Below are positions 5,679-41,144 of a stretch of DNA of 49,712 nucleotides, in pieces. Under the pieces are notes generated by a model that did not search any database, was not told where the DNA came from, and saw nothing but the letters and a program-made list of their open reading frames with translations. The position numbers and the translations under genes are program-made. Source of the stretch: Deferrisomatales bacterium (GTDB lineage Bacteria > Desulfobacterota > Deferrisomatia > Deferrisomatales > JACRMM01); assembly GCA_033551855.1 (NCBI GenBank), contig JAWSUI010000029.1, positions 1 through 49,712 of the forward strand, read 5' to 3'. Position 1 is the stretch's first letter. Every line of letters begins with the position of its first letter.

Positions 5679-5886
5679 CTACAGCGAGAGTTGCGTCAGA
5701 GTCGGGCGCGAAGCCTCCCTGGAGAGCGGGCGGGCGGCCCTGGCACGATGCTCTGGGCGCACCGAAGGGCCGCAGGGCCGCCAGAAACCGTCTCGCGAGC
5801 TGCACGGCGCGTCGGGATCCTGCCCACCGGAGGGAAGGTCTCGCGCCGAACACACGCGCAGAACCGATCGCTTGTCGTAGTACTAG
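5679..5886 (+). mobile_element. ~205-bp MITE-like repeat family B, copy 1
   Basis: Reverse complement of 12680-12889 and 34188-34399. Imperfect terminal IRs CTACAGCGAG...CTTGTCGTAG, followed by TACTAG. Confidence 0.75.
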
Positions 5887-8869: not shown

Positions 8870-8898
8870 TTGACAGTCTTCCCGTGGGCTCGCATATT
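8870..8898 (+). promoter_or_regulatory. Putative sigma70 promoter of the IclR gene
   Basis: TTGACA (8870-8875), 17-nt spacer, CATATT (8893-8898). ATG follows at 8936. Confidence 0.55.
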
Positions 8899-8935
8899 TC
8901 GCATGGCGTCTGTTCGTTTCGAAGAGTGGAACATC

Positions 8936-9736
8936 ATGGCCAAAGGTCCCGGCGTCCGCCCCGAAGGGCGGGCCCGCTACACCGTGCGGGCGATCGAGCG
9001 CGCCATCTCCATCCTCAACGCGTTCTCGTTCGACGAGCGGGAGCTGTCCCTGGGCAGCCTGACCGAGAAGACGGCCCTCTCCAAGCCCACGGTGTTCCGG
9101 ATCCTTTCCACCCTCGAGAGCCACGGCTACGTCTCGCAGGACCCCGCTCGCGGATCTTACCGGCTGGGGTCGAAGTTCTTGGAGCTGGGCGGCTTGGCCC
9201 TCTCCTCCGTCGGCCCGCGCAATGCCGCCCGGCCTCACTTGGACCGCCTCCGGGCGGAGTTACGGGTGACGATCCTGTTCGGGGTCCTGATCGACGATCA
9301 GCTGGTCTACGTCGACAAGCGGGAGAGCGAGGGGCCGATTCGGATCGTCTCAGACGTGGGGCTTCGACGCAATCCCAACTACGGCATGCTGGGCATGGCC
9401 CTCATGGCCTTCCTCGAGGACGCGGAGGCCGAGCGGTTGCTGGCGCGTTTTCCCCTCGAGCCATACACCCGCTTCAGCCTGACGGACCCGGAGGCCTTCC
9501 GCCGGCGGCTTCGAGAGGTGCGCCGAGAGGGCTACGCGGTGGAGACCAACGAGGCGATCGAAGGGGTCTGGGGAGTCGCCGCCCCGGTCCGGGATGCCCG
9601 GCGCGAGGTCGTTGCCGCCGTCGGTGCAGCATCGCCGCTGGGCGAGAAGTCGGAGCGACGGGTGGCCGAGGTCACCGAGCGGGTCCGCGCCTGCGCTTGC
9701 GCCATCTCCGAGGCCATGGGTTTCCCTGCCGATTGA
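8936..9736 (+). CDS. IclR-family transcriptional regulator
   Basis: VRAIERAISIL...LSKPTVFRILSTLESHGYV HTH. C-terminal VRREGYAVETNEAIEGVWGVAAPV. Confidence 0.92.
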   Translation: MAKGPGVRPEGRARYTVRAIERAISILNAFSFDERELSLGSLTEKTALSKPTVFRILSTLESHGYVSQDPARGSYRLGSKFLELGGLALSSVGPRNAARPHLDRLRAELRVTILFGVLIDDQLVYVDKRESEGPIRIVSDVGLRRNPNYGMLGMALMAFLEDAEAERLLARFPLEPYTRFSLTDPEAFRRRLREVRREGYAVETNEAIEGVWGVAAPVRDARREVVAAVGAASPLGEKSERRVAEVTERVRACACAISEAMGFPAD

Positions 9737-9869: not shown

Positions 9870-12161
9870 TTACGAGCCGGCCTCCCGCCTCTTGTTCCGG
9901 AGCGCGCCCAGCACCATCTCCGGAGTCACCGGCAACCGGTCGAACTCCACCCCGATGGCGTCGGCAACCGCGTTGACGATCGCCGGCGCGGGCGCGAGCT
10001 GGGTTCCCTCGCCGGCCTCCTTGGCCCCGAAGGGCCCCAGGGGATCGTCGGTGTCGATGTGGATCCCCTCCATCTCGGGCATCTCCATCAGGGTGGGGAA
10101 GCCGTAGTCGAGGAACGAGGGGTTGTGCTGCTGCCCGTCGATGCAGGTGCTGTCCTCGTAGAGGGCCTGGCCCATTCCTCCCACGATGCTCCCCTCGAGC
10201 TGGCCCTCCACCAGCATGGGGTTGATCGGCTGCCCACAGTCGTGGGCCGTCACCATCCGCACCACCTTCACCTTGCCCGTCTCGAGGTCCACTTCCACCT
10301 CGGCCGCCTGGGTCATGAAGGAGTAGTTGGGGCTGAAGTTCCCGTTCTTGGTCAGCAGCGTCGTGGGCTGCTCGGCGGGCGGAATCCAGGAGCCTCGACC
10401 TACGATGGGTAGGGCGTTGTCCGCATACTGATATTCGTGGAGGGCCTCCGCGAGGCTCACCCCCCGCTCTGGGCTCCCCTTGACCCAGATCCGCCGGTTC
10501 GCGGCCGTCAGGTCATCCAAATTCGCCTCGAGCCGGTCGGCCACGAAGGCGAAGAGCTGGTTTCGCACGTCGGTGGCCGCCAGGTAGGCCGCATTGCCGG
10601 CCCGGACCGTGACGCCGGACCCGAAGGTCCCTGCGTCCAGGGGGCAGGTGCCCGTATCGGCCGCGGTGATGTGCACGTCCTCCATGGGCACCCCGATCTG
10701 CTCTGCCACGAGCTGGCAGATCACCGTCTCCGCCCCCTGCCCGATGTCGGCCGCGCCGGAGAGCACGTTCACCCGCCCCTCGCGCAGCAGTTGCACCACG
10801 GCGCCCGAGGCCAGGTGGGCCATGTTTGCCACCCCGGAGGGGAACGACGCCCCCGCCAGGCCCACGCCCCGGCCATAGGGGAGCTTCCCCCGCTTCTCCG
10901 CCCAGCCGATGGCCCGGGCCGCCTCCTTGACGCTGTCTGCGAACCCGCAGGTGTTGATGATGAACCCCGCGGGGTGCGGCTCGCCGGCCACGATGGCGTT
11001 TCGGACCCGCATCTCCGCGGGATCGACCCCGATCCTCCGGGCGATCAAGTCGATCTGGCGCTCGATGGCGAAGCGGGCCTGGGGGATGCCGTGGCCCCGC
11101 ATGGCACCGCCCACAGGCTTGTTGGTATAGACGTGGTAGCCCTCATAGAGGAGGTTCTCGATCCGGTAGGGGATCATGATGAAGAAGCAGGAGAGGGTGA
11201 TCATCAGGGGGGCGGTGGAGTTGTAGGCCCCCCCGTCCGCGTGGGCCGTGATCTGCTGGGCCAGGATCTTCCCCTCCTTGGACACGCCGGTCTTGACGGT
11301 CAGGTACATGGGGTGACGCTGGCGGGTGCACTGGAACGCCTCTTCCCGCTCGTAGAGGAACTTCACGGGCCTCCCCAACTCCCTCGCGAACCAGCAGGCG
11401 CAGAAGTCCTTGGCGAACATGTCGATCTTCTGGCCGAAGCCGCCCCCGACCTTGGGCTTGATCACCCGGACCTTGTTCTCGGGGACGAGCAGCGTGGTGG
11501 CCAGGTTTCGCTTGAGGAAGTAGGGGATCTGGGTGGAGGACCAGATGGTGAGGTCACCGTTCTGGGGGTCGTACTGCGCCAGGGCGGCGTGGGGCTCCAA
11601 CGGCGCGTGGTTCACCGCCTGGGAGTAGAAGGAGTCTTCGAAAACGAATTCGGACGCGGCGAACCCACTGGCGACGTCGCCGAACTCCTTGCGGATCGAG
11701 GCACTGGCGTTGGTGCCGATGGCCTCGTGGATCAGGGGGGCGCCCTCCCGCATCGCCTCCAGGGGGTCGAAGACCGCCGGCAACTCTTCGTACTCCACGC
11801 GTACCAGGCGCGCCGCCTCCTCCGCGGTCTCCGGGTCCACGGCCACGACGGCGGCGACCTCGTCACCGATGTAGCGGACCTTCTCCCGGGCCAGGGCGTG
11901 CTCGTCCTTGGCCTTGGGCACGATGCCGTAGACCCGGTCGGGAATGTCCTTGCCCGTGATCACCCCCTTCACCCCGGGCAGCGCGCGGGCCTGCGCCGTG
12001 TCGATCTGGAGGATGCGGCCGTGGGGGATCGGGGAGCGGACGAGCTTCCCGTAGAGCATGCCCGGCAGCACCAGGTCGTCGGTGAACTGGGCCTGGCCGG
12101 TCACCTTGGCGGCCGCGTCATGCATGGGCAGGCGCTGCCCCACCACGTTCAGGACCTTCAT
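9870..12161 (-). CDS. hcrA: Xanthine oxidase-family molybdopterin subunit, 4-hydroxybenzoyl-CoA reductase alpha-like (copy 1)
   Basis: AKVTG, GGGFG, AMRGHG and GPFGAKEAGE motifs (RGHG and KEAxE as recalled for HcrA). ATG at 12161 overlaps the stop of the [2Fe-2S] gene. Confidence 0.75.
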   Translation of the reverse strand: MKVLNVVGQRLPMHDAAAKVTGQAQFTDDLVLPGMLYGKLVRSPIPHGRILQIDTAQARALPGVKGVITGKDIPDRVYGIVPKAKDEHALAREKVRYIGDEVAAVVAVDPETAEEAARLVRVEYEELPAVFDPLEAMREGAPLIHEAIGTNASASIRKEFGDVASGFAASEFVFEDSFYSQAVNHAPLEPHAALAQYDPQNGDLTIWSSTQIPYFLKRNLATTLLVPENKVRVIKPKVGGGFGQKIDMFAKDFCACWFARELGRPVKFLYEREEAFQCTRQRHPMYLTVKTGVSKEGKILAQQITAHADGGAYNSTAPLMITLSCFFIMIPYRIENLLYEGYHVYTNKPVGGAMRGHGIPQARFAIERQIDLIARRIGVDPAEMRVRNAIVAGEPHPAGFIINTCGFADSVKEAARAIGWAEKRGKLPYGRGVGLAGASFPSGVANMAHLASGAVVQLLREGRVNVLSGAADIGQGAETVICQLVAEQIGVPMEDVHITAADTGTCPLDAGTFGSGVTVRAGNAAYLAATDVRNQLFAFVADRLEANLDDLTAANRRIWVKGSPERGVSLAEALHEYQYADNALPIVGRGSWIPPAEQPTTLLTKNGNFSPNYSFMTQAAEVEVDLETGKVKVVRMVTAHDCGQPINPMLVEGQLEGSIVGGMGQALYEDSTCIDGQQHNPSFLDYGFPTLMEMPEMEGIHIDTDDPLGPFGAKEAGEGTQLAPAPAIVNAVADAIGVEFDRLPVTPEMVLGALRNKRREAGS

Positions 12162-12643
12162 GACGCACCTCCCGACATCCGGGCCGCGGCGATCTCGACC
12201 GCTTCCACGATCTTCACGTACCCCGTGCACCGGCAGAGGTTCCCGGCGAGCTTGCGCCGGATCTCCTCACGCTTGGGCCGGGAGTTCTCGGCCAAGAGCT
12301 CGGTGGCGCTCATGAGGAAGCCGGGAGAGCAGAAACCGCACTGGAGGGCGCCGTGCTCCACGAAGGACTTTTGCAGGGGGGAGAGCTCCCCGTCCTGGGA
12401 GAGGCCCTCGATCGTCCGGACCTCCCGGCCCTCGGCCTCGACCGCCAGCGTGAGGCACGCCAACACGGCCTCCCCGTCCAGGAGCACGGTACAGGCGCCG
12501 CAGGCGCCGAGGTCGCAGCCTCGCTTCGTGCCCGTGAGAAACGCCTTCTCCCGCAGGGTCTCCAGGAGGGTGGCGTTGGGCGCGCAGGCAACCTCGTACA
12601 GGTCGCCGTTGATCGTCAGGGGCAGGATCCGCTTGCCTTCCAT
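12158..12643 (-). CDS. hcrC: 2x[2Fe-2S] subunit, HcrC-like (copy 1)
   Basis: GTKRGCDLGACGACTV, QCGFCSPG and GNLCRCTGY. Confidence 0.85.
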   Translation of the reverse strand: MEGKRILPLTINGDLYEVACAPNATLLETLREKAFLTGTKRGCDLGACGACTVLLDGEAVLACLTLAVEAEGREVRTIEGLSQDGELSPLQKSFVEHGALQCGFCSPGFLMSATELLAENSRPKREEIRRKLAGNLCRCTGYVKIVEAVEIAAARMSGGAS

Positions 12644-12679
12644 CGTCTCTCCCTCCTCCGGGGTTTTCGTGCCTCAGAC

Positions 12680-12889
12680 CACAGGTCCGAGCGATCGGCT
12701 CTCCGCGTGCGTTCGGAGCGAAACCTTCCCTCCGCCGGGCGGGGTCCCGACGCGCCGTGCAGCTCGCGAGGCGGTTTCGGGCGGCCCTACGGCCCCTCGG
12801 TGAGCCCAGAGCAGCGTGCCGAGGCCGCCTGCCCGCTCTCCAGGAAGGCTTCGCTCCCGACTCTGACGCAACTCTCGCTGTAGCACTAG
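12680..12889 (-). mobile_element. ~205-bp MITE-like repeat family B, copy 2, inside the operon between the FAD and Fe-S subunit genes
   Basis: Homologous to 5679-5886. Its end (ctcgctgtagcactag) coincides with the TAG stop of the FAD subunit. Confidence 0.75.
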
Positions 12890-13842
12890 GCCAGGGCCCG
12901 CAAGGCCCGCGCGGCCAAGGTCGCCATCAGCTCTCTCTTGAAGCCCACCGGGTGCATCGTGGTCGGCACCACCTTGGCGGCCTTGGGGGCCAGCGCCGCC
13001 GCCTCGCCGATGGACGCCTCGGTCCACGCCGCCCCCTCGAGCGCCGCCTCCAGCCCCGGGGCCCGCACCGGGGCACGGTCCACGGCAGTGAAGGCGACCC
13101 GGGCGGCGGCGTCTCCCCTCCAAGCCGCCACACCCACGACCGGGAAGTCGATGGCTCCCCGGAGGCTGAACTTCTCGTAGTGAGAGCAGCCGTTTGCCGC
13201 GGCCGCGGGGATCGCCACCTCCGTCACGATCTCGGCCGGTCCCAGGGAGAGAGGCCTGCGGCCTTCCCCCGAGTAGAGCTCGGCCAGCGGCATCCGGCGG
13301 GCGCCGGCAGGTCCCCGGACGGTCACGTCGGCGCCCAGGGCCAGGAGCGCCGGGGCCACGTCCCCCGAGTAGGTGGAGAAGCACACGCCCTTCCGGCCCA
13401 CGACGTGGCAGTCCTCGCCGCCGGCTTTGAAGCAGAGGCTTCGTGCCTGGCGCCACTCCCACGACTGGTTGAAGAAACGGCACCGCGTGTTCTGGCACAG
13501 GTTGCCGGCGAGGGTTCCCATGGTCTGGTGGCGGTACGAGCCCACTGCCGCAGCCGCCTGGACGAGCGCCGGGAACTTCCTGGCGAGGCTCTCGTCCCGC
13601 TGGATCTCCTTGAGCGTGGTGGCGCCGCCGATGACCGTAGCGCCGGCCTCCTCGCGGACGCCCCTGAGCTCCGCCAGGTGCTTCAAGGGGACCAGGGCGG
13701 GCGGCGCCTCGACCCGGTGCTTCAGGTTCACCAGGAGGTCGGTGCCCCCGGCCAGCGCCTTCGCGCCGGGGCTCGCTCCGAGCAGGCGCACGGCCTCCCC
13801 CGGATCGGAAGGCCGGAGATACGAGAATGGCGGCAGACGCAT
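12886..13842 (-). CDS. hcrB: FAD-binding subunit with [4Fe-4S] insertion loop, 4-hydroxybenzoyl-CoA reductase beta-like
   Basis: AGGTDL and TLAGNL followed by the Cys-rich insert CQNTRCRFFNQSWEWRQARSLCFKAGGEDCHVVGRKGVCFSTYSGD typical of HcrB. Confidence 0.85.
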   Translation of the reverse strand: MRLPPFSYLRPSDPGEAVRLLGASPGAKALAGGTDLLVNLKHRVEAPPALVPLKHLAELRGVREEAGATVIGGATTLKEIQRDESLARKFPALVQAAAAVGSYRHQTMGTLAGNLCQNTRCRFFNQSWEWRQARSLCFKAGGEDCHVVGRKGVCFSTYSGDVAPALLALGADVTVRGPAGARRMPLAELYSGEGRRPLSLGPAEIVTEVAIPAAAANGCSHYEKFSLRGAIDFPVVGVAAWRGDAAARVAFTAVDRAPVRAPGLEAALEGAAWTEASIGEAAALAPKAAKVVPTTMHPVGFKRELMATLAARALRALA

Positions 13843-13858
13843 GGGATACCTCCTGAGG

Positions 13859-15496
13859 TTACCTTCGCAGGACCTGTTTCTCGGCCGCCGAAGCGGCGAG
13901 GTCGGCCACGCCCCCGCGGCCGAACCGCTTCACCTTGAGCCCGCCCGAGAGGCGGGGGAACTCCGGCAGCACCAGGAGCTCGTCCGGGAGCTTGAACTCG
14001 GCGATCTTCCCGTGCAGGAAGGACCGAAGTCCCTCCAGGGTGAGGGGGGTCGCGGACCCGTCGACCTTCACGCAGGCGCAGATGGACTCCCCGAGCACCG
14101 GATTGGGCGTGCCCACGACACACGCCTCCACCACACCCGGGTGCTCCGCGACCAGGGCCTCGATCTCTGAGGGAATGATCTTGAAGCCGCCACGGTTGAT
14201 CCAGTCCTTCAGGCGCCCCAGGATCCGGAAGCACCCGTTATCGTCCCTCGCCACCAGGTCTCCGGTGTGGAGCCACCCCGCGCGAAGCTGCCGATCGGTC
14301 TCCTCGGGGTTCCTCCAGTACCCCCGGGTCACGTGCCAGCCCCGGAGAAGGAGCTCTCCCGGCTCGCCCGGGGGCAGGTCCCTCCCGGTAGCGGGGTCCA
14401 CGACCCTCGCGCCGGTCCCTTCCAGGGGGTAGCCGATGTATCGCTCTCGGACCTCGAGCGGCGACGGGTAGGGCAGGATGATCGAGAGGCCCGGCCCCAC
14501 TTCCGAGGATCCGAGAAACGAGGAGATGGGGATCCCCATCTCCTCCTGCACCCGGCGGATGAGGCCGGCGGGCGCGATCTGGCCGGCGATCAGACCCGCC
14601 CGGAGCGAGGAGAGGTCGTAGCGGGGCCGGGCCGGGTGATTGAGCTCCAGCAGGTAGTGGGCGGGGGCGGCGAGCTGCAGCGTGACCCGCTCCTCCTCGA
14701 TGAGGTGGAAGGCCCTTTCCGGGGTGAAGTGGTCCAGGATCGCGACCGTCGCCCCGATCAGGACGGGCTGGATCAGGTGGGCCCCACACCCATACGAGTG
14801 GCTCATGGCCAGGAAGCCGATGAAGACGTCGTCCTCGGTGGCGTTCACGCCCAAGGAGTAGGACCACCCAGCCCGGACGGCCTGGGACTGGCAGATCGTC
14901 GCCCCCTTGGGCCGCCCGGTAGTGCCCGAGGTGTAGATCAGCATGGAAAGGTCTTCAGGCCCCACCCCCGGCTGCCCGCGGTCCCCCTCGGCGGCGAAGA
15001 GCTCGTCGAGAGGCCTGACCCGCGGGTCGCACTGCCGCGGGGCCGGGCGTCCCCGGACCGCCACCACGTACTCCAGATCGGGAAGCCCGTCGAGCCCCAA
15101 CACGGCCTCGACGTAGTCGTACCCCTGCCATTCATCGGAGAGGAACACCGCCCGGGCCCCGGAGCTCTCGAGAATGAAGCGGGCCTCCCTCTCCCGGTAG
15201 GCGGGATTGATCCAGGCGACGACGACTCCCAACCGCTGGAGGGCGTAGAAGAGGACGAAGAGCTCGAGGCAGTTGGGCAGGTAGACGGCTGCCACCGAGC
15301 CGCGGGTGAGCCCCAGGCCCCGGAGCCCCGCCGAGAGCTGCTCGGCCTGCCGGACCATCCCCCCGAAGGTGAGGCGGCGCTCCCCGTCCACCACGGCCAA
15401 CTTCTCTGGCAGGCGCTCCGCCGTCCGCCGGGCCGCCTCCCAGACGGTGCGGCGCGCGAGGTCGGCGTAAACGGCGGCAGGATCGACTCCGGCCAT
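13859..15496 (-). CDS. Class I AMP-dependent (aryl/acyl)-CoA ligase
   Basis: YTSGTTGRPKG, GWLHTGD, GRLKDWINRGG and EFKLP motifs. Start at 15496 (GGAGAAGG RBS) is preferred over 15520. Confidence 0.88.
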   Translation of the reverse strand: MAGVDPAAVYADLARRTVWEAARRTAERLPEKLAVVDGERRLTFGGMVRQAEQLSAGLRGLGLTRGSVAAVYLPNCLELFVLFYALQRLGVVVAWINPAYREREARFILESSGARAVFLSDEWQGYDYVEAVLGLDGLPDLEYVVAVRGRPAPRQCDPRVRPLDELFAAEGDRGQPGVGPEDLSMLIYTSGTTGRPKGATICQSQAVRAGWSYSLGVNATEDDVFIGFLAMSHSYGCGAHLIQPVLIGATVAILDHFTPERAFHLIEEERVTLQLAAPAHYLLELNHPARPRYDLSSLRAGLIAGQIAPAGLIRRVQEEMGIPISSFLGSSEVGPGLSIILPYPSPLEVRERYIGYPLEGTGARVVDPATGRDLPPGEPGELLLRGWHVTRGYWRNPEETDRQLRAGWLHTGDLVARDDNGCFRILGRLKDWINRGGFKIIPSEIEALVAEHPGVVEACVVGTPNPVLGESICACVKVDGSATPLTLEGLRSFLHGKIAEFKLPDELLVLPEFPRLSGGLKVKRFGRGGVADLAASAAEKQVLRR

Positions 15497-15518
15497 GCCT
15501 TCTCCGGGTGGGCGGTTC

Positions 15519-15550
15519 ATTTCATTCTGTGAAATCTCGTTTCAGTTTCA
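15519..15550. promoter_or_regulatory. Overlapping palindromic operator array (IclR/KdgR-type)
   Basis: ATTTCA-N5-TGAAAT (15519-15535) overlaps TGAAA-N5-TTTCA (15530-15544), plus TTTCA at 15546-15550, directly downstream of the -10 box. Confidence 0.6.
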
Positions 15551-15554
15551 AGGG

Positions 15555-15582
15555 AGTATAGCGCGGCTGCGGGGAGAGTCAA
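15555..15582 (-). promoter_or_regulatory. Putative sigma70 promoter of the CoA ligase-hcrBCA operon
   Basis: Minus strand TTGACT (15582-15577), 16-nt spacer, TATACT (15560-15555). Confidence 0.65.
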
Positions 15583-15752
15583 GCGAGAACTCGCTCATTC
15601 GCGAAGGCAGGACGCGGTGTTTCCGGGCGGCTCGCGGCAGTCCGTCGGTTGACGGCGGGGGCAGTCAGGAATGGCGGCAGCTCCGGGGGCCGGGGGTAGC
15701 ACCAACGGTGGTGGGGAAGGTGGGGGGTGAAGGCGGAGAAGACCGCAGCGAC

Positions 15753-16388
15753 TCAGGCGGGGGAGACGTCCAGGTGCCCCAGGGTGCCCAGCTCCCGAGC
15801 CGAGGCGAGGTGCAGGTGGGGGGGCGAGGGCTCGGGGCCCACGAGGACGGTGGTCATGCCGAGGGAGCGGCCGGTGTCGAGGTTCTCCACCAGGTCGTCC
15901 ACCATCCAGCAGGCGGCGGCCTCGGTGTCGAGGGCCTCGAGGAGCCGGCGGTAGCCGCGGGGGTCGGGTTTGGGGACGTAGCCCATGAAGGCGATGTCGA
16001 AGACGGCCTCCACGGCGGCCTCCACCCCCAGGAGGCCGAGCACGGCCCGGGCGTGGGACTCGGAGCCGTTGGTGAAGACGACCTTCCGGCCGGGCAGGCG
16101 GCCCAGGACCTCGGCGAGGACGGGGTCAGGGGCCAGGTATTCCGCGAGGGGCACGTCGTGGACGAAGGAGAGGTAGTGGTCCGGAAACACGCCGTGGTGG
16201 GCCAGGAGCCCTCCCAGGGTGACCCCGTACACCGCCCGGTAGCGGCGGCGAAGCTCGGGGATGGCCTCGACGGCGATCCCCAGAACCTCGCCCATGTACG
16301 CGTCGATGCGCCGGTCCACCTCGGCGAAGAGCCCCGAAGTGCGCGGGTAGAGGGTGTTGTCGAGGTCGAGGATCCAGGTGCGGGTCAT
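15753..16388 (-). CDS. HAD hydrolase, pyrimidine 5'-nucleotidase-like
   Basis: LDLDNTLYP, YGVTLGGL, VFTNG, PKP and MVDDLVENL motifs. Confidence 0.85.
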   Translation of the reverse strand: MTRTWILDLDNTLYPRTSGLFAEVDRRIDAYMGEVLGIAVEAIPELRRRYRAVYGVTLGGLLAHHGVFPDHYLSFVHDVPLAEYLAPDPVLAEVLGRLPGRKVVFTNGSESHARAVLGLLGVEAAVEAVFDIAFMGYVPKPDPRGYRRLLEALDTEAAACWMVDDLVENLDTGRSLGMTTVLVGPEPSPPHLHLASARELGTLGHLDVSPA

Positions 16389-16421
16389 CGGCACACGGTC
16401 ACGGCAGGAAGGATCTCTTGC

Positions 16422-16560
16422 ACCGCAGAGGCGCGGATGTCGCCGAGGAAGGCCAAAGTCTGGATCTCAGGAGGGTGGGCTGCGACAGACTTTCGGGATT
16501 TCCCGCCGCAACCCCGTCCGCACGCATTCGATGTCTCTGCGTCCTCTGCGCCTCTGCGGT
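16422..16560. repeat. REP-like inverted repeat pair ACCGCAGAGGCGC...GCGCCTCTGCGGT
   Basis: Perfect 13-bp IR (16422-16434 / 16548-16560) with additional degenerate CTCTGCG units. Core related to repeat family A. Confidence 0.7.
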
Positions 16561-16578
16561 TCCCCCCCCAGGCCTCCC

Positions 16579-18870
16579 TCACCGCCCCTCCCTCTTGTCC
16601 CGCATGGCCCGCCACACCTTCTCGTAGGACAGGGGCAGGCTGTTCACCCGCACGCCCATGGCGTCGAAGATGGCGTTGGAGAAGCAACCCATGGTCGGGT
16701 TCGTCGCCCCCTCGCCGATCTCCTTCACGCCCCAGGGCCCGGCGGGCTCATGGCAGGCGACGACCTCGGAGTGTACCCGGGGCATGTCCAGTGCCGTGGG
16801 AATGCGGTAGTTGGCGAGGTCTGGGTTCTTGATGGCCCCGTTCTCGTCGAAGACCACCTGCTCCCACACCGTCTCCCCCATCCCCATCGCCAGCGCCCCG
16901 TGGACCTGGCCGTGGAGGAGGCGGGGGTTGATCACGGTCCCGCAGTCGTGGACGTCCCAGACGTCGAGGACGGTGATCTCGCCGGTTTCCTCGTCGATCT
17001 GCACCTCGGCGGCCTGGACCCCGAAGCTGTAGGCGGGGCTCGTGCCCACCGGCGCCCCCTTGAAGGTGCCGCCGAGCTTGGGGGGCTTGTAGGAGCCCTT
17101 TCCCACCAGCGGCCCGTGGAGGACGAAGTGCCGCCGCGCCGCGTCTTCGAAGGCCAGGGCCTTGTCCGCGCGGGTGACCGAGACGATGAGCCCGTCGCGG
17201 CAGTCCAGGTCCTCGGCGGGCACCTCGAGCATCTCGGCGGCCGCGGCGAGCACCTGGCGCTTGACCTCCTCGCCGGCCTCCTTGGCCGCCGCGCCGGTCA
17301 TGAGGGTCTGTCGGCTGGAATACGCCCCCAGGTCCATGGGGCAGGTCTCGGTGTCGGCGGCGACGATCCGCATCTGCTCGTAGCGGTAGCCCATGGCCTC
17401 GGCCGCCATCTGGCAGAGCACGGTGTCCGAGCCCTGCCCGATGTCCGGGGCCCCGGTGTAGAGGGTCGCGGAGGTGCCGTCCTGGTTGACCTTGAGCACC
17501 ACCGCCGAGTGGGGGAGGTCCGTCCGGTAGATCGGGTACCCCGCGCCGGAGACGAAGCTCCCGGTGGCGACCCCGATGCCCCGGCCCCGGGGGAGCTTGC
17601 CCTTCTTCGCGTCCCAGCCCGAGATCTCCCGGGTCCGCTCCAGGCACTGTTTGAGCTCGCAGGTGTTCACCCCGAAGTCGTTGGGGGTCACCGTGTCGGG
17701 CCGGCGGGCGTTGACCAGCCGAATGTCCATGGGGTCCATCCCCAGGTCCGCGGCCACGTTGTCCAGGTGGCTCTCGAAGGCGTACTTGGGCTGCGGGGCG
17801 CCGTGTCCCCGCTGGGCGCCGCAGGCCGGCAGGTTCGTGTAGACCCGGTAGAGGTCGAACTTGTAGTGGTCGAACTCGTAGGTCAGCGGCAGCAGCGCCC
17901 CCGCGTAGTAGGCCGTGGCGATTCCCAGGCTCGTGTAGGCGCCGCCGTCCATGAGGAAGTTGGCGTGGGCACCGAGGATCTTGCCCTCCGCCGTGACACC
18001 CGTCGTGATCTCCATGTACTGGGCGTGGCGCCCCCGGTTGTGGGCGAACATCTCGGCCCGGTCGTAGAACATGCGCACCGGCCGACCGGTGATCCGCGCC
18101 AGGGCCGCGCCGGCGAACTCCAGCCCGGTAGGCTCGAGCTTCCCCCCGAATCCGCCCCCCAGGTAGGGCTTGATGACCCGCACGTCTCCCATGGGAAGGC
18201 CGAACTCCCGGGCGATGTAGTACTGGAAGTAGTGGGGGGACTGGGTGCTGGAGTAGACCGTGAGCTTTCCCCCCTCCCACATCGAGATGGCCGAGTGGGG
18301 CTCGATGGGCGCCTGGTAGGTGCGCTGGCCCAGAAAGGCGTCGGTGCGCACGTGGTGCGCCTCGGCGAAGGCTGCCTCGATGTCGCCGAAGCTCTGGTGG
18401 ATCTCGGTGTTGATGTTCCCCGGGTACTCGTCGTGGACCTGGGGCGCGCCCTCCTCCATGGCCCGGCGGAAGTCGAGCACCGCCGGCAGCGGCTCGTACT
18501 CAACCCGTATGAGCTTGAGCGCCCGGTAGCAGGTCTCCTCGTCCACGCACGCCACCGCGGCGACCTTGTCCCCCACGAACCGAACCTTGTCGATGCAGAA
18601 GATGTTCTCGTCCCACCGGGCCGGGCTGATGCCGTACTTGAGGGACGGAACGTGGCGGTGGGTGATGACCGCCTTCACCCCCGGCAGGCGCTCGGCCTCG
18701 GAGGTGTCGATGCAGAGGATCCGGGCGTGGGCGTGGGGGCTCGTGAGGATCTTGCCGTGGAGCATGTTGGGGAACTTGAGGTCCCCGGTGTACTTGGCAG
18801 CCCCGGTCACTTTCTCGCGGCCGTCGATGCGGGGGACGCTTCGGCCGATCACGCTGTGCTTGGGTCGCAT
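16579..18870 (-). CDS. hcrA: Xanthine oxidase-family molybdopterin subunit, 4-hydroxybenzoyl-CoA reductase alpha-like (copy 2)
   Basis: DGREKVTG, GGGFGGK, AQRGHG, GAYSSRQT and GPWGVKEIGE motifs. Confidence 0.75.
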   Translation of the reverse strand: MRPKHSVIGRSVPRIDGREKVTGAAKYTGDLKFPNMLHGKILTSPHAHARILCIDTSEAERLPGVKAVITHRHVPSLKYGISPARWDENIFCIDKVRFVGDKVAAVACVDEETCYRALKLIRVEYEPLPAVLDFRRAMEEGAPQVHDEYPGNINTEIHQSFGDIEAAFAEAHHVRTDAFLGQRTYQAPIEPHSAISMWEGGKLTVYSSTQSPHYFQYYIAREFGLPMGDVRVIKPYLGGGFGGKLEPTGLEFAGAALARITGRPVRMFYDRAEMFAHNRGRHAQYMEITTGVTAEGKILGAHANFLMDGGAYTSLGIATAYYAGALLPLTYEFDHYKFDLYRVYTNLPACGAQRGHGAPQPKYAFESHLDNVAADLGMDPMDIRLVNARRPDTVTPNDFGVNTCELKQCLERTREISGWDAKKGKLPRGRGIGVATGSFVSGAGYPIYRTDLPHSAVVLKVNQDGTSATLYTGAPDIGQGSDTVLCQMAAEAMGYRYEQMRIVAADTETCPMDLGAYSSRQTLMTGAAAKEAGEEVKRQVLAAAAEMLEVPAEDLDCRDGLIVSVTRADKALAFEDAARRHFVLHGPLVGKGSYKPPKLGGTFKGAPVGTSPAYSFGVQAAEVQIDEETGEITVLDVWDVHDCGTVINPRLLHGQVHGALAMGMGETVWEQVVFDENGAIKNPDLANYRIPTALDMPRVHSEVVACHEPAGPWGVKEIGEGATNPTMGCFSNAIFDAMGVRVNSLPLSYEKVWRAMRDKREGR

Positions 18871-18900
18871 GGTTTCTGATCCGTGGTCGGTTGGGGTTCG

Positions 18901-18936
18901 ATGGGACGTATGGGACCTATGGGACCTATGGGGCCG
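18901..18936. repeat. 9-mer tandem repeat (ATGGGACCT)x4, degenerate
   Basis: atgggacgt atgggacct atgggacct atggggccg in the spacer between the Fe-S and Mo subunit genes. Confidence 0.8.
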
Positions 18937-19473
18937 TCACCCCTTCAGCCACTCCACGCCGGGCTCGTCCTCGGGGGCGGTGCGGCCCTCCGCCACGGCC
19001 TGCACGGCCTCGACGATGTGCACGTAGCCGGTGCACCGGCACAGGTTCCCGCCGATGGCTTCCCGGATCTCGGCCTCGGTCGGCCGGGGGTTGCGGGTCA
19101 GGAGCGCCTTGGCCGAGAGGATCATCCCGGGGGTGCAGTAGCCGCACTGGACCGCCCCGTGGTTGATGAAGCTCTCCTGGAGGGCGTCGAGCTCCCCGTT
19201 GCCGGCGACCCCCTCGATGGTGACGACCTCGCGGCCGTCCGCCTCCACCGCGAGCACCAGGCACGAGTTCACGGGTTGGCCGTCGAGGAGCACGGTGCAC
19301 GACCCGCAGTCCCCCAGCTCGCAGCCCTTCTTCGTGCCGGTGAGCTCGCACTCGTCGCGCAGCACGTTGGTCAGCGTCGCATTGGCCTTGACCACCGCCG
19401 TTCGCTCGTCGCCGTTCACCCGCAGGGTGATCAGGTAGCGCTTGACGCCTTGTCTGTCGCTCAAGGATTGCAT
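18937..19473 (-). CDS. 2x[2Fe-2S] subunit, HcrC/PcmS-like (copy 2)
   Basis: GTKKGCELGDCGSCTV, QCGYCTPG and GNLCRCTGY. ATG at 19473 with GAGGA RBS. Confidence 0.85.
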   Translation of the reverse strand: MQSLSDRQGVKRYLITLRVNGDERTAVVKANATLTNVLRDECELTGTKKGCELGDCGSCTVLLDGQPVNSCLVLAVEADGREVVTIEGVAGNGELDALQESFINHGAVQCGYCTPGMILSAKALLTRNPRPTEAEIREAIGGNLCRCTGYVHIVEAVQAVAEGRTAPEDEPGVEWLKG

Positions 19474-20381
19474 CGCAGATCCTCTTCCCCCGTCACCGGG
19501 CACCGGTCACTCGCCCCGTGCCCTTCGTCGACCGCCTTGCGCAGCGCCCGCTTGGTGAGGACCCGGGCCAGGTTCCTCCGGTACTCGGCCGAGCCGCGGA
19601 TGCTGTCCCGGGGGCGGCTGTCCGCTTCGGCCCGGAGTCCGGCCTCCTCGAGCACCTCCGGGGTCGCGGGCTTACCCCTCAGGTACTCCTCGGCGGCGGG
19701 CGCCCGGATCACGGTGGGCGCGCAGGAGGCGAGGGCCACCCGGGCCTCGTGGATCACGCCGTCTTCCACGCGCACCGCAACCGCCGCGCCGGCCACGGCC
19801 AGAGCACCCGACCGGCGCAGCCCGAACTTGAGGTAGCAGCTGCCGGTGAAGGCGCCGTCGGGGATGACAACCTCGGTGAGGATCTCCCCGGGGGTGATGG
19901 CGGTCTGGGCGGCTCCGCGGAAGAAGCCCTCCAGAGGCAGGGTGCGCTCGCCTCCGGCGTGCACGAGCCGGATCGTTGCCCCCAGGGCGATGAGGATGGG
20001 GGGGAGGTCCGCCGAGGGTACCCCGTTGACGATGTTCCCTCCCACCGTCCCGAGATTTCGGATCTGGAGCGACGCCATGCGGTGGGCCGCCTCGGAGACC
20101 GACCGGTACCGGGCGTGGAGCACCGGGGAATCGACCACGTCGCTCTGGGTCGCGAGGGCCCCGATCACGACCCCCCGGCCCTTCTCGTACCGGATGCCCC
20201 GCAGGGCGTCGAGGCGCTTCAGGGACATCAAGGCCCTGGGGGCGAGCTTTCCCACCTTCATCTTGTGGAGAAGGTCGGTGCCCCCGGCGAGCACCCTGAT
20301 CTCGGAGCCCAGGGAGGCCAGCAGCGCGCAGGCCCCCCCCAGGGTGTCGGGGGCGTGGTAGTCGAAGTCGGGAAGGTGCAT
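19461..20381 (-). CDS. FAD-binding subunit of XO-family molybdoenzyme, lacking the [4Fe-4S] loop
   Basis: AGGTDL, IRNLGTVGGNIVNGVPSADL (no Cys insert) and DSIRGSAEYRR. Start MHLPDF at 20381. Confidence 0.88.
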   Translation of the reverse strand: MHLPDFDYHAPDTLGGACALLASLGSEIRVLAGGTDLLHKMKVGKLAPRALMSLKRLDALRGIRYEKGRGVVIGALATQSDVVDSPVLHARYRSVSEAAHRMASLQIRNLGTVGGNIVNGVPSADLPPILIALGATIRLVHAGGERTLPLEGFFRGAAQTAITPGEILTEVVIPDGAFTGSCYLKFGLRRSGALAVAGAAVAVRVEDGVIHEARVALASCAPTVIRAPAAEEYLRGKPATPEVLEEAGLRAEADSRPRDSIRGSAEYRRNLARVLTKRALRKAVDEGHGASDRCPVTGEEDLRCNP

Positions 20382-20583
20382 GGGTGAGCTCCTGCCGGGG
20401 GCACGGTCGACCCGCCCGGGCTGCGCCGGGGGGCGAAGAAATCGGGAGCGGCAGGAGGGCCTGCCGCTCCCTTGGAAAGGGTAGCAAGAGCGCCCGGGTC
20501 TGTCACGCCGGGGTCCGCGGGGCCGGCGCCGCGCGGCCCCGAAATTGTTCACAAGCCCGAGCCTTCGCGATCGTCAGCCGTCG

Positions 20584-20754
20584 CTACTGCTTCTTTTCCA
20601 TACCCTCGTGCACTTGGAACTCCACACCGCACTTCGGGCAGTGGATCTGCGTATCCTTGGAGACGTGCCCCTCGCCGCCCCTGTGATGCCCGGCGGCACA
20701 CCCCAGAGCCACGAGCATCAGACCGACAGACGCCAGACCCAGCCATTTCCTCAT
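20584..20754 (-). CDS. Small lipoprotein with CxxC (HCPKCG) motif
   Basis: MRKWLGLASVGLMLVALG-C lipobox, His-rich segment and CPKC. AAGGAG RBS. In operon context. Confidence 0.65.
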   Translation of the reverse strand: MRKWLGLASVGLMLVALGCAAGHHRGGEGHVSKDTQIHCPKCGVEFQVHEGMEKKQ

Positions 20755-20867: not shown

Positions 20868-21848
20868 CTAGAACGCCCACACCACGTTGAGCCAGGTGGC
20901 CTGCCCCTCCGGGAGGTGCCGGGCGCCGAACTCCCAGTGGTGCTTCAGCACCGCGCTGAAGCGCCCCTGGTCCGGCCAGTACTTGACGGTGGGGCCGAGG
21001 GCGTGGACCTCGCCCCTTCCCCCCTTGATCTTGGGGCCCCCGCCGTCGGGCTTGAACTCGTCCTTGGTGGTCTGCCAGTAGGAGTAGCCCGAGATCCCGT
21101 ACCGGAGGCCCTCCTTGCGGGCGTAGCTAATGGCGTAGTCGACGTGGAACTCCTGGCCGGGCTCGAGCTCGCCCTTGCCAACCCCCCCCAGGATGTAGTC
21201 GTCGTTCTTGGTGTTGAAGTCGTACATGAGCTTCGCGGAGAAGTCGAAACCGCTGTGGAGGTAGGTGACGGCCACGACCGGCTCGAAGGTCCAGTGGTTC
21301 TTGCTGAGGATCTGCGTGGCGGGATCCTCGCGGTCGTAATCCCCGGTGGGGACCCAGATGTCCAGGGCCGCCACCATGTGGAAGTTGGGGCCGAAGTGCC
21401 ACCCCAGGATCAGCGGGTTGACGATGATGTCCCCGAGGCCCGACTGCCGATGGTCGATCTCGAGGTCCGGGGCGCGGACGTCCGCCCAGTACATGGGCAA
21501 GAAGATCTGGACGCCGTAGGAGGCCCCGAGGATCGTCTGGGGGGTCACCCAGATGAACCGGGGGACCACGACGGTGACGTCGGCCTCGAAGTCCACCGGG
21601 GCGGTCGAGCTGCCCGAGACCCCGGGCAGGGTCCCCTTCAGCCGGTCCTTCTGGATCAGGCCGAAGTAGTTCTTGAGGTAGACCCCCGGCGGAGGGAGGG
21701 CCCCGACCACGAAGTCCTCCACCCCGTTGGGGTAGTGCTGCCCCGCCGACGGCAGGTTGGCCCAGGACGGGGTGCTCAGGGCCAAGAGGAGAAGGGCCAG
21801 GGGGAGAATCCGGCACCACAGGGGCAATCTTCGAGCAACTCGCGACAT
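20868..21848 (-). CDS. SphA/MetA-pathway-type outer-membrane beta-barrel channel
   Basis: Signal peptide, HYPNGVE...GALPPPG, SGLGDI..P..LGWH, PTGDYD motifs and C-terminal Phe (VVWAF). Confidence 0.82.
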   Translation of the reverse strand: MSRVARRLPLWCRILPLALLLLALSTPSWANLPSAGQHYPNGVEDFVVGALPPPGVYLKNYFGLIQKDRLKGTLPGVSGSSTAPVDFEADVTVVVPRFIWVTPQTILGASYGVQIFLPMYWADVRAPDLEIDHRQSGLGDIIVNPLILGWHFGPNFHMVAALDIWVPTGDYDREDPATQILSKNHWTFEPVVAVTYLHSGFDFSAKLMYDFNTKNDDYILGGVGKGELEPGQEFHVDYAISYARKEGLRYGISGYSYWQTTKDEFKPDGGGPKIKGGRGEVHALGPTVKYWPDQGRFSAVLKHHWEFGARHLPEGQATWLNVVWAF

Positions 21849-22086: not shown

Positions 22087-23424
22087 CTAGCCCTCCTTTC
22101 TCCGGTCGTGAAAACGCTTCGCCTTCAGTGCATACCGCGGCAGGGTGCCGTACTCCACCGGCACCAGCTCGAAGTTGAGCTGGGTCTTGATCCGCAGGGC
22201 GCTCCCGAGGCGCACCAGGAGCTCTTCGCGCTGGCCCTGGGAGGTGCCCGGCGGCAGTTCCACCTTGAGCCGGATGTGGTCGAGGTCTCCCCTCTTCTCC
22301 ACCTCGATCTCGAACTCACCGTCCAGCTCCGGGAACGACCGCACCGCCTCCTCGGCCGCGATGGGAGAGAAGAGGACTCCCTTGACCTTGGTGATGTGAT
22401 CGACCCGTCCGTGGACGCCCTGGTCGAGAATGCGCCAGGTGCGGCCGCACCCGCATGCCCGGTCGGCCCACATGGAGACGTCCTTCGAATCGAACCGGAC
22501 GCAGGGTTGGGCCTGGCGGTCGAACGAGCTGATGACGATCCTCCCCGGTACCCCGGGACGGGTGACCGGGGCGTCGGAGTCGAGCTCCAGGAGCTCCACC
22601 AGGAACATCGCCTCGTTCACGTGGAGCCCCCCGGGCTGGTGCCGGCACTCGAAGGACCAGGCCCCCACCTCGGTGGCCCCCACGTGGTCGCACACGGGGC
22701 AACCCCAGGCCTCCTCCATGCGGCGCTTGGTGCTCGGGACGAGAGCTCCGGGCTCCCCGGCGCAGAGAATCTTTCGGATTCCCCACTCCCTCGGGTCGGC
22801 CCCCAGCTCCTTCCGGGCGCACTCGGCCATGCCCAGCACGTAGGTCGGGGTGGCCATGAACGCCGTGGCCTGGAGCTCCTTCATCTTCATCAGCCGCTCC
22901 CGGGTGCCCAGCACCCCCCCCGGGACCACCTCGCACCCGATCTTTTCGGCGGCGTAGTGGCCGGCCCAGTAGGCCACGAAGATGTTGTAGCCGAAGGGGA
23001 GGAAGACCCGGTCCGAGGGCCGGAACCCCTGGGCCCAGAGGATCGTGGCCCAGCACTCGCTCCACCACTCCCAGTCCGCCCAGGTGTCGGGCTGATAGAC
23101 CGGGGTGCCCGTCGTCCCGCTGGTCTGCCGGAACTCGGTCACTTCCTCGAGGGGGACGCACAGGGTGTCCCCATAAGGGAAGGGGTCGATCCCCTGGCAG
23201 CGGTAGTCGTCCTTGGTCAGCAGAGGCACCCGGGCCACGTCCTCCCACGTTCGAATGTCCTCGGGGCGCACGCCTGCCGCGTCGTACTTCCTGCGGTACA
23301 GCCGGCTGCGCTCGTAGACCCACGAGACCAGCCTTCGAAACTTGCGCAACTGGAACTCCCGGGTCGCCTCGGGATCGAGGGTCTCCAGTATCGGGTTCCA
23401 GTGCTCGACCGTGTCCTTGCCCAT
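22087..23424 (-). CDS. Phenylacetate-CoA ligase (PaaK)-family aryl-CoA ligase
   Basis: QTSGTTG, AGEPG, DHVGATE and GRVDHITKVKGV motifs, with the C-terminal KAKRFHD typical of the PaaK family. Confidence 0.85.
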   Translation of the reverse strand: MGKDTVEHWNPILETLDPEATREFQLRKFRRLVSWVYERSRLYRRKYDAAGVRPEDIRTWEDVARVPLLTKDDYRCQGIDPFPYGDTLCVPLEEVTEFRQTSGTTGTPVYQPDTWADWEWWSECWATILWAQGFRPSDRVFLPFGYNIFVAYWAGHYAAEKIGCEVVPGGVLGTRERLMKMKELQATAFMATPTYVLGMAECARKELGADPREWGIRKILCAGEPGALVPSTKRRMEEAWGCPVCDHVGATEVGAWSFECRHQPGGLHVNEAMFLVELLELDSDAPVTRPGVPGRIVISSFDRQAQPCVRFDSKDVSMWADRACGCGRTWRILDQGVHGRVDHITKVKGVLFSPIAAEEAVRSFPELDGEFEIEVEKRGDLDHIRLKVELPPGTSQGQREELLVRLGSALRIKTQLNFELVPVEYGTLPRYALKAKRFHDRRKEG

Positions 23425-23516: not shown

Positions 23517-23532
23517 TGCAACCTCCGTACCA
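23517..23532 (-). promoter_or_regulatory. Sigma54 (-24/-12) promoter for the paaK-like ligase/hcr2 operon
   Basis: Minus strand TGGTACGGAGGTTGCA (GG-N10-GC), about 90 nt upstream of ATG 23424. Confidence 0.7.
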
Positions 23533-24073: not shown

Positions 24074-24721
24074 ATGTCGCTGCTGTTCACTCAGGACTGG
24101 GACGTCGTTCGCGGCAAGGAAGACGAGTACGCGGAGTTCGTGTCGGACTCGTTCATCCCCGAGTGCAACCGGCTGGGGCTGCAGTCGGTCGGCGGCTTCT
24201 ACGTGGCGGTCGGCGTCGGGCCCAAGGTCATCTCCGTCAAGAGCGCCCCCTCCCTGGCTGCTCTCACGTCCGCCATGGCGGACGAGCGCTTCCACCGCCT
24301 GAAGCAGGCACTCAAAGACTACGTGGTCAACTACAGCAGCAAGATCCTCGAGCCCACGCTCTTTCCCGAGCGAGTCGAGTACGCCATCCAGAAAGGCGTC
24401 TGGAAGTACAACGTGTACTACGACGTCAACCCCGACGGGCGCCCGCAGTACGAGGATTTCCTCCGGTCCGAGTATCTCCCCACCCTGGCCGACCTGGACT
24501 ACGTCGAGGTCACCCAGGGGTGGAACGTGCTCATCGGGGGGTTCAGCGAGGCGATCCTGGAACTCACCTTCAGTGACTCGGTGGACATCGGCCGGCTCCT
24601 CGGCAACCCCTCCTTCCGCAACGTCACCTACACCCTGTGCCGGGACCACGTGCGCAACTACAAGAGCCGGATCCTGCGGACGACGGAGCGGTTCGACGAG
24701 CCCCGCTGGTTCCGGCTGTAA
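24074..24721 (+). CDS. Hypothetical protein with two tandem alpha/beta (NIPSNAP/dimeric-barrel-like) repeats
   Basis: GGAGG RBS. Halves align: WDVVRGKEDEYAEFVSDSFIP...VVNYSSKIL vs YDVNPDGRPQYEDFLRSEYLP...VRNYKSRIL. Confidence 0.75.
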   Translation: MSLLFTQDWDVVRGKEDEYAEFVSDSFIPECNRLGLQSVGGFYVAVGVGPKVISVKSAPSLAALTSAMADERFHRLKQALKDYVVNYSSKILEPTLFPERVEYAIQKGVWKYNVYYDVNPDGRPQYEDFLRSEYLPTLADLDYVEVTQGWNVLIGGFSEAILELTFSDSVDIGRLLGNPSFRNVTYTLCRDHVRNYKSRILRTTERFDEPRWFRL

Positions 24722-28459: not shown

Positions 28460-28558
28460 GGAGGGGATCGGGACGGGGGATAACGGGATCGACGGGATGG
28501 CGACACGGATGGGGGGGTACGCGACCACAGGGACGGGGGGAGCGGAAGGACCCGGGTC

Positions 28559-34187: not shown

Positions 34188-34399
34188 AATACTACGACGA
34201 GCGATCGGGTCTCCGCGTGCGTTCGGCGCGAAACCTTCCCTCCGGCGGGCAGGATCCCGGCACGCGGTGCAGCTCGCGAGACGGTTTCGAGCGGCCCTAC
34301 GGCCCTTCGGTGCGCCCAGAGCATCGTTCCAAGGCCGCCCGCCCACTCTCCAGGAAGGCCCCGCGCCCGACTCTAACGCAACTCCCGCTGCAGTCTAAG
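34188..34399 (-). mobile_element. ~205-bp MITE-like repeat family B, copy 3
   Basis: Same orientation as, and highly similar to, 12680-12889. Confidence 0.75.
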
Positions 34400-38366: not shown

Positions 38367-38449
38367 GCTACCCATAACATTCGATGACACCCGAACAGGA
38401 GACGATGGGGCGGGAAGTTCCCGCGCAGCGGGGCTCTCTCGCCGGGTCC

Positions 38450-38471
38450 GGCGGGGCAAGCCCCGTCCTAC
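38450..38471 (-). repeat. GTAG-type REP
   Basis: Minus strand GTAGGACGGGGCTTGCCCCGCC. Confidence 0.6.
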
Positions 38472-41140: not shown

Positions 41141-41144
41141 GACG

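Follow-up and report, generated by a model that had tools for sequence, protein, structure and literature searches.

The 49,712-nucleotide stretch analysed here (hereafter the window), which is an entire contig (JAWSUI010000029.1) from the 4.24-Mb genome of a Deferrisomatales bacterium with a G+C content of ~69%, encodes side by side on its minus strand two three-subunit enzymes that belong to the xanthine oxidase family. Each consists of an FAD, a 2Fe-2S and a molybdopterin (Mo) subunit, and both sets are intact. Set 1 is, by its sequence, a separate and older paralogue that forms its own conserved clade of uncharacterised relatives of 4-hydroxybenzoyl-CoA reductase (HBCR), and set 2 probably represents the usual reductase that makes benzoyl-CoA from phenol-derived 4-hydroxybenzoyl-CoA, an enzyme of already known kind. 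Set 1 probably catalyses the para-dehydroxylation of some hydroxybenzoyl-CoA, because all its neighbours share the 4-hydroxybenzoate skeleton. More tentatively, we propose that it removes the para-hydroxyl group of 3-substituted 4-hydroxybenzoyl-CoAs such as protocatechuyl- or vanilloyl-CoA. The genes are arranged as follows.

13842-12886, minus strand: FAD subunit of set 1, 318 aa, with an HcrB-type four-cysteine [4Fe-4S] loop
12643-12158, minus strand: 2Fe-2S subunit of set 1, 161 aa, with intact motifs for both clusters; overlaps the start of the Mo gene
12161-9870, minus strand: Mo subunit of set 1, 763 aa, ATG start
20381-19461, minus strand: FAD subunit of set 2, 306 aa, loopless, CoxM/CutM type
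19473-18937, minus strand: 2Fe-2S subunit of set 2, 178 aa
18870-16579, minus strand: Mo subunit of set 2, HBCR alpha, 763 aa

As claimed in an earlier note on this DNA, both sets are complete and carry all the motifs it quoted. The Mo subunit of set 1 reads GTFGSGVT, MRGHG and KEAGE; an open reading frame with a GTG start at 12230 is a mere extension of its gene. It scores 730 bits under the HBCR alpha model TIGR03194 (cut-off 994.55), and the FAD (beta) subunit reaches 280 under TIGR03195 (cut-off 404.55). Despite these missed cut-offs, HBCR is the best family, sequence and fold match of set 1: chain A of the Thauera aromatica enzyme (PDB 1RM6_A) is both the best sequence match of the Mo subunit and its best fold match, with a template modelling (TM) score of 0.95 at 36% structural identity. 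The predicted model has a predicted local distance difference test value of 90.7, which supports the fold only. That set 1 could be one of the usual dehydrogenases of xanthine, purines or aldehydes is hardly credible and largely refuted by the tree described below. Although it obtains 595 bits on the XdhA model NF043082, this lies below the cut-off of 780 and below its score on the HBCR model. Likewise, the Mo subunits of both sets remain under the curated cut-offs of XdhABC, PucCDE, CoxLMS and PaoABC. Moreover, the outer rows of the tree carry RGFG or RGYG together with KGxGE, unlike the RGHG and KEAGE of set 1, and a ligase, an IclR-type regulator and an operator are conserved with set 1. 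Cut-offs, motifs and tree together thus rule out an identity as ordinary xanthine dehydrogenase (XDH).

For the phylogeny, a quick LG+G4 tree was calculated from 48 rows chosen from 150 library representatives and the loci described below; Thauera HcrA is represented by the proxy P0255 only (1017 bits to 1RM6_A), and PcmT and UcdO are not among the rows. The earlier note had suggested this check, and neither set groups with the ordinary xanthine/aldehyde dehydrogenases. Set 1 falls inside the HBCR-related group with a Shimodaira-Hasegawa-like approximate likelihood ratio test (SH-aLRT) value of 98, and in the approximately unbiased (AU) test its grouping with set 2 (p-AU 9e-68) and with the Thauera-type proxy (p-AU 0.001) was rejected. 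The two Mo subunits share 40% identity, which together with the AU test rules out a local tandem duplication as the origin of the two sets. The earlier suggestion that one of them is an undescribed HBCR-related enzyme thus holds for set 1, which has a clade of its own and fails both the HBCR and the XDH-type cut-offs. In the literature searched, outside of which most subscription papers lay, we found neither a description of the set 1 clade nor a dedicated protocatechuyl- or vanilloyl-CoA reductase.

A pattern scan of GTDB yielded 68 set 1 loci: 64 at 70-90% identity, three frameshifted copies, and one (L068) that repeats the tandem in the order set 2, ligase, set 1. The taxa given in their titles are Desulfobacterales, Syntrophales, Desulfomonilaceae, unclassified deltaproteobacteria and Actinomycetota. 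A cultured carrier was not found; all 68 titles refer to metagenome-assembled genomes (MAGs), and nine clusters of the set 1 clade show only MAG or metagenome names among the up to 40 members examined in each. The distribution is patchy, with set 1 in 5/400 genomes of the class sample besides the central one, versus 50/401 genomes with an enzyme of the HBCR clade. The Joint Genome Institute labels this clade, which is tight and widespread, HBCR alpha, although the curated cut-off is not reached.

The Mo-site residues of HcrA (Gln214, His360, Glu726) are kept in set 1 as Gln211, His357 and Glu718. In contrast, its pocket is changed: Leu323 replaces Tyr326 and Gly516 replaces Arg524 of HcrA. In addition, Tyr319 is exchanged for Thr, Ile321 for Pro and Tyr521-Ser522 for Phe-Gly, and the loop 443-452 is shorter. 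The exchanges of Tyr326 and Arg524 are clade-wide. All 119 Mo proteins of the set 1 clade have the Gln, RGHG, KExGEG and GTFGSGVT; the position of HcrA Tyr326 is occupied by Leu (117) or Val (2) and never by Tyr, and the position of Arg524 is always Gly, whereas all 13 rows of the HBCR clade keep the tyrosine. The HcrA numbers derive from alignments to 1RM6; the placement of Tyr326 and Arg524 in the pocket follows from the pocket list of the urolithin dehydroxylase Ucd via a numbering offset, and the functions of the HcrA residues are in part presumed.

As the earlier note had stated, the FAD subunit of set 1 has a Cys-rich loop and that of set 2 lacks it; the loop corresponds to a 38-residue insert. 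Its Cys121, Cys137, Cys145 and Cys154 align with four cysteines in 1RM6_B, which is the beta chain from Thauera and the best match (E 1e-55), and are conserved in 59/59 orthologues, which are typically 317-326 aa long. The same note had regarded the mode of electron input as a functional mark of the two enzymes, which our data do not support. HBCR-clade Mo subunits with loop-type FAD partners also occur (genomes G080 and G018), contradicting the notion that the loop marks a clade, and PaoB of the oxidising PaoABC, an enzyme that also has the extra cluster, is among the loop-type matches. The [4Fe-4S] loop thus does not track the Mo clade.

These observations touch on the possibility that set 1 acts at another position or in the other direction on an aryl-CoA, for instance by meta-dehydroxylation of 3-hydroxybenzoyl-CoA or by a hydroxylation feeding the pca pathway. 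We ascribe a small chance to it. Set 1 has lost the Tyr and Arg of HBCR, a loop also present in PaoB is not exclusive to reductases, and the HBCR-related radiation comprises many uncharacterised clades besides those of sets 1 and 2. However, the nearest solved structure and the motifs are those of a para-dehydroxylase, PobA in the islands described below already covers hydroxylation, and both characterised dehydroxylases of the family act para to the carbonyl, according to the accessible part of bioRxiv 10.1101/2025.01.17.632430. In the 2.3-Mb genome G040, HBCR-related enzymes have expanded to an extreme degree: 26 proteins match the set 1 Mo subunit with E values of 1e-100 or better. Yet another clade, with RGFG and KEAGEG, is represented by a second, loopless HBCR-related set convergent to set 1 (L039:12530-16185 and L041:13509-17170).

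Next to the structural features, the neighbourhood points to the kind of substrate. Counts of neighbours refer to the 61 set 1 loci with FAD and Mo genes and to flanks of 8 kb. A CoA ligase is present in 38/61 loci; in 17/61 it is an orthologue of Lig1, the ligase-like enzyme of set 1 in the window, which has salicylate- and dihydroxybenzoate-AMP ligases as its best PDB matches. A gene for a tripartite ATP-independent periplasmic (TRAP) transporter occurs in ten loci, and a tannase/feruloyl esterase gene in L034. Six of the 50 set 1 genomes possess a pcaH/pcaG pair, which in four of them lies within ~15 kb of set 1 together with pcaB, pcaC and a BKACE gene; the pcaH, G, B and C copies of G063 exceed their cut-offs. 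pcaH was found in only 1/400 other genomes of the class sample (Fisher 9e-6) and in 0/50 of those with the HBCR clade (Fisher 0.027), values obtained from kin that are not independent. Eight loci encode URO-D-type methyltransferases, three of them together with a corrinoid protein, and in L027 and L061 the methyltransferase genes follow iclR and the ligase gene in the same orientation. Their sole PDB match is CdmB of Acetobacterium, and they may be O-demethylases. The closest subfamily (at least 68% identity) was detected in 9 of the 37 set 1 genomes (out of 50) included in this test, counting that of the query, and in 0/395 genomes without set 1, 12 of which contain a sister subfamily (59-65%). 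The co-occurrence tests ignore kinship and MAG incompleteness.

Furthermore, an HBCR-clade enzyme coexists with set 1 in 23/50 genomes at 880 bits or more. This number is a floor, since the TIGR03194 search missed G053 and split matches, and six further genomes probably belong here. In the window, L034 and L068, both enzymes lie in one island. Such coexistence fits non-redundant substrates. It favours 3-substituted substrates, as do the altered pocket and the links to pca and methyltransferase genes that are specific to set 1. Nitrate and sulfate reducers have been described to dehydroxylate protocatechuyl-CoA to 3-hydroxybenzoyl-CoA (PMC4585845, accessible part), and according to the accessible part of PMC7997838, vanillate alone does not sustain anaerobic growth of Rhodopseudomonas palustris. 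Thus, protocatechuyl-type compounds are the best supported of the substrates guessed in the earlier note.

Several observations weigh against a preference for 3-substituted substrates. The canonical HBCR already accepts protocatechuyl-CoA, which would lessen the need for a specialist. PobA adjoins the pca genes in four of the five genomes tested. The substrate in common may therefore be unsubstituted 4-hydroxybenzoate, and the notion that the pca link proves protocatechuate is weakened accordingly. G244 carries a pob/pca-type cluster without set 1, and the window's own genome contains neither pca genes nor a methyltransferase of the close subfamily. Five genomes with pps/ppc genes and set 1 (G051, G057, G077, G066 and G049; G057 is a single chromosome) gave no match above 43% identity when set 2 was used as query in 15 genomes. 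In the class sample, the six set 1 genomes and the 50 genomes with the HBCR clade do not overlap, as judged with one subtype and two candidates scored per genome. Finally, the ligases are shared: 11/61 loci have a PaaK-like ligase in the flanks of set 1, and in G044 and G045 a Lig1 orthologue stands behind a set 2-type operon, as do TRAP genes and a methyltransferase/corrinoid module, the latter more distant. The assumption that each set owns its ligase, as made in the earlier note, is contradicted by these last two findings.

Several of these points would equally be expected if set 1 were a second family of plain 4-hydroxybenzoyl-CoA reductases, with a ferredoxin-type donor and switched via IclR by external 4-hydroxybenzoate, leaving set 2 to serve phenol. 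This close rival is quite possible, though we do not consider it probable. It draws on PobA, the ligase families common to both sets, the five pps/ppc genomes and the class sample, and also on G058, G064 and G089, in which no HBCR-clade enzyme was detected beside the pob/pca island or away from it. However, the genomes without the canonical enzyme are mostly MAGs of unstated completeness, and at least 23 of the 50 set 1 genomes retain both enzymes, three of them in one island. Moreover, the pocket is altered throughout the clade, while the HBCR-clade rows uniformly keep their tyrosine, and set 1, but not the HBCR clade, is accompanied by pcaH and by methyltransferases of the close subfamily.

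The pca clusters deserve mention on their own. Oxygen-dependent (beta-ketoadipate) clusters were seen at G058:C48, G063:C38, G064:C137, G089:C65, G060:C7, G055:C363 and G244:C111 in a host group that is mostly strictly anaerobic, with BKACE in the place expected for pcaIJF. In G063, G089 and G244 they adjoin a molybdenum-bis(pyranopterin guanine dinucleotide) oxidoreductase gene.

The control region of set 1 comprises the following elements.

13859-15520, minus strand: Lig1, aryl-CoA ligase-like adenylating enzyme, first gene of the set 1 operon
15520-15544, minus strand: operator TGAAA-N5-TTTCA-N5-TGAAA, located after the -10 box and before the start of the ligase gene
15582-15555, minus strand: sigma70-like promoter TTGACT-16-TATACT upstream of Lig1, from a promoter scan
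8903-9736, plus strand: IclR-family regulator, convergent on set 1, with IclR-type NCBIfam matches under their cut-offs
8870-8898: sigma70-like promoter of iclR itself, from a promoter scan

The operator occurs once in the window and in the genome, and in none of 100 shuffles. An IclR orthologue (42-48% identity) travels with it: a half-operator upstream of the FAD gene is found in 8/12 loci with the orthologue and in 0/42 without. The IclR protein at 8903-9736 is therefore likely the repressor of set 1. For set 2, the earlier note had proposed a sigma54 promoter in contrast to sigma70 and IclR control of set 1. The sigma70 promoter and operator of set 1 stand, whereas the support for sigma54 control of set 2 is weak. 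A single exact sigma54-like site (23517-23532) precedes the PaaK-like ligase gene, 3.1 kb upstream of set 2 and separated from it by a hairpin (20444-20471). With up to one mismatch, three sites were found versus 1.14 expected, a number reached by 13/100 shuffles, and with two mismatches the scan was at chance level (36 versus 36.4). Neither the window nor six relatives showed a sigma54 site within the 240-550 bp upstream of the FAD gene of set 2, and no V4R-type (XylR/DmpR) activator was detected in the genome.

The Mo subunit of set 2 reads GAYSSRQT, QRGHG and KEIGE, passes TIGR03194 with 1164 bits and, in the alignment to 1RM6_A, retains the equivalents of HcrA Gln214, Tyr326, His360, Arg524 and Glu726, the last four of which are Tyr322, His356, Arg520 and Glu720 in its own numbering. 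In the tree it belongs to the 13-row clade of the Thauera-type proxy (SH-aLRT 100). As its FAD subunit, with CutM/CoxM as nearest relatives, has no [4Fe-4S] loop, set 2 is classed by sequence with the loopless HBCR type of strict anaerobes and not with the Thauera type. Its loopless relatives adjoin pps/ppc genes in other genomes, and the window itself contains an anaerobic phenol cluster.

20868-21848, minus strand: outer-membrane channel-like gene of the Phenol_MetA_deg family (PF13557)
22087-23424, minus strand: PaaK-like CoA ligase, below the cut-off of TIGR02155
24795-27818, plus strand: phenylphosphate synthase-like alpha and beta (ppsAB), with matches to phosphoenolpyruvate-synthase-type NCBIfam models
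36954-43107, plus strand: phenylphosphate carboxylase beta, delta-like phosphatase, carboxylase alpha, a third UbiD, and UbiX

The name ppsAB is deduced from domain type and context. In the ppc operon, the carboxylase beta and alpha subunits (TIGR02724 and TIGR02723) and UbiX score above their cut-offs, and TIGR02726 gives a score below. In line with its profile score and this setting, set 2 fits the earlier proposal that one set handles phenol-derived 4-hydroxybenzoyl-CoA.

The three-subunit build of both sets is that of T. aromatica HcrCAB (PDB 1RM6/1SB3) and R. palustris HbaBCD. Set 1 shares with HcrCAB the [4Fe-4S] loop, the equivalents of Gln214, His360 and Glu726 and the fold, and differs from it in its low structural identity, its pocket, the shorter 443-452 loop and its separate clade; conversely, set 2 has the pocket residues of HcrA, Tyr326 and Arg524 among them, and lacks the [4Fe-4S] loop. 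Geobacter PcmR is not known to have such a loop. The accessible parts of PMC1924859, PMC4148979, PMC2700814 and PMC13753352 do not state the loop status of PcmR. By description and not by sequence, set 2 resembles G. metallireducens PcmRST and the phenol-induced HBCR of Desulfatiglans anilini (02053-02055). Like the latter, it combines a CoxM-type FAD subunit (293 aa in D. anilini; PMC7500099 Table S1, accessible part) with nearby pps/ppc genes and a PaaK-like ligase, of the family of the D. anilini cluster gene proposed as 4-hydroxybenzoate-CoA ligase (PMC6114531, accessible part). Unlike in these systems, the pps and ppc genes of the window form separate blocks. A pyridine nucleotide or a similar electron donor is plausible for set 2, because the Enterocloster urolithin 9-dehydroxylase UcdCFO (Ucdh), a para-dehydroxylase of the xanthine oxidase family with a loopless FAD subunit, runs on NADH (PMC11760930 and bioRxiv 10.1101/2025.01.17.632430, accessible parts) and may serve as a model. 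UcdCFO differs in acting on free urolithins without a CoA ligase, and appears, by a numbering offset, to have Tyr where both sets have His.

D. anilini also provides the grounds for considering set 1 a reductive deaminase of 4-aminobenzoyl-CoA, another of the earlier substrate guesses. Its aniline/4-aminobenzoate-induced sets (03202-03204 and 03875-03876, putative 4-aminobenzoyl-CoA reductases) have a 332-aa FAD subunit annotated as HBCR beta, as would correspond to set 1, and 03202-03204 follow the order FAD, 2Fe-2S, Mo found in set 1. Since they coexist with the loopless phenol set, D. anilini displays the same split into an HBCR-beta-type and a CoxM-type design (PMC7500099, accessible part, compared by lengths and annotations). 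A third protein, 00166, is a weakly expressed 756-aa HBCR-like alpha subunit seen on 4-aminobenzoate, aniline and phenol and not on benzoate, according to the same accessible text. Nonetheless, we regard a deaminase as very unlikely, as it is without contextual support. One aniline-induced set lies with phenylphosphoamidate synthase genes, whereas a pps/ppc-like (UbiD-like) gene is near only 1/61 set 1 loci, the neighbours of which suggest hydroxy- and methoxy-acids; the D. anilini hcr cluster, too, lies apart from phenylphosphoamidate synthase/carboxylase-like genes. The typical set 1 FAD subunit is shorter than the 332 aa of D. anilini, and no D. anilini record is among the 68 named GTDB loci, a weak point given the pattern scan and the fragmented D. 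anilini Mo genes.

Returning to the dehydroxylation of 3-substituted 4-hydroxybenzoyl-CoAs, set 1 could work as follows. An aromatic acid would be imported by a TRAP transporter and would lift the repression exerted by IclR at the operator, and Lig1 would form the CoA thioester. Low-potential electrons would pass from a ferredoxin-type donor via the extra [4Fe-4S] cluster, FAD and the two [2Fe-2S] clusters to Mo, a path for which the cofactor motifs are present and the direction is suggested by the resemblance to 1RM6. At the Mo site, where Gln, His and Glu are conserved, the 4-hydroxyl group would be expelled as water to give 3-hydroxy- or 3-methoxybenzoyl-CoA. The substitutions observed may render the pocket more open and less polar, and plain 4-hydroxybenzoyl-CoA may be taken as well. 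In the present organism the substrate may be external, or may arise from catechol or guaiacol via the neighbouring pps/ppc enzymes.

Some further features of the window and the genome should be noted.

15753-16394, minus strand: HAD-family pyrimidine 5'-nucleotidase-like gene between sets 1 and 2, TIGR01993 above cut-off
12688-12890: dispersed repeat of ~200 bp between the FAD and 2Fe-2S genes of set 1

The repeat resembles miniature inverted-repeat transposable or repetitive extragenic palindromic elements. It gave 18 blastn rows of at least 180 bp on 13 contigs at 84-90% identity; further window copies lie at 5679-5872 and 34198-34393, and the one at 12688-12890 splits the set 1 operon. The ppc operon combines alpha and beta carboxylase subunits with a third UbiD and a divergent LysR gene; the strict anaerobes described in the literature consulted have mainly the beta type in their cluster. 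Two genes of the phenol cluster (24074-24721 and 43139-43687) have no Pfam or NCBIfam match at the thresholds applied, and the pps operon ends with a flavin reductase-like gene and a riboflavin kinase-HAD fusion (27941-29611). A small predicted lipoprotein with a CPKC motif (20584-20753) is encoded between the MetA-type channel and set 2 and followed by the strong hairpin at 20444-20471. Two genes lie at 34-2269, one of the low-specificity threonine aldolase type, which the GntG subfamily model matches too, and one that weakly matches the carbonic anhydrase CsoSCA. Elsewhere in the genome three more Mo subunits belonging to the xanthine oxidase family are encoded, two on contig C15 and one on C14. 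One on C15 (G000:C15:24457-28258) belongs to another loop-type set, with RTHG and without the catalytic Glu (KEGGLS); at G000:C15:4370-11775 a YqeB-like gene above cut-off, a marker of selenium-type maturation, directly follows a loopless Mo-hydroxylase set and two PaaK-like ligase genes.

Taken together, the set 1 clade now has links to pob/pca and methyltransferase genes and to an operator, and a narrower substrate class. The IclR operator offers a quick route to the effector. Should set 1 be an isoenzyme, the pair in one genome would be a natural test of the purpose of the extra [4Fe-4S] cluster. Should it prefer 3-substituted substrates, it would be a candidate enzyme for the anaerobic breakdown of protocatechuate and vanillate in strict anaerobes. 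It is a further, doubtful step to see in set 1 the founding member of a family of protocatechuyl-/vanilloyl-CoA 4-dehydroxylases with their own ligase, IclR and corrinoid O-demethylase. Such a family, in some genomes paired with the oxygen-dependent pob/pca route for the same acids, would let sulfate- and iron-reducing bacteria of sediments feed guaiacyl acids from lignin into the benzoyl-CoA pathway.

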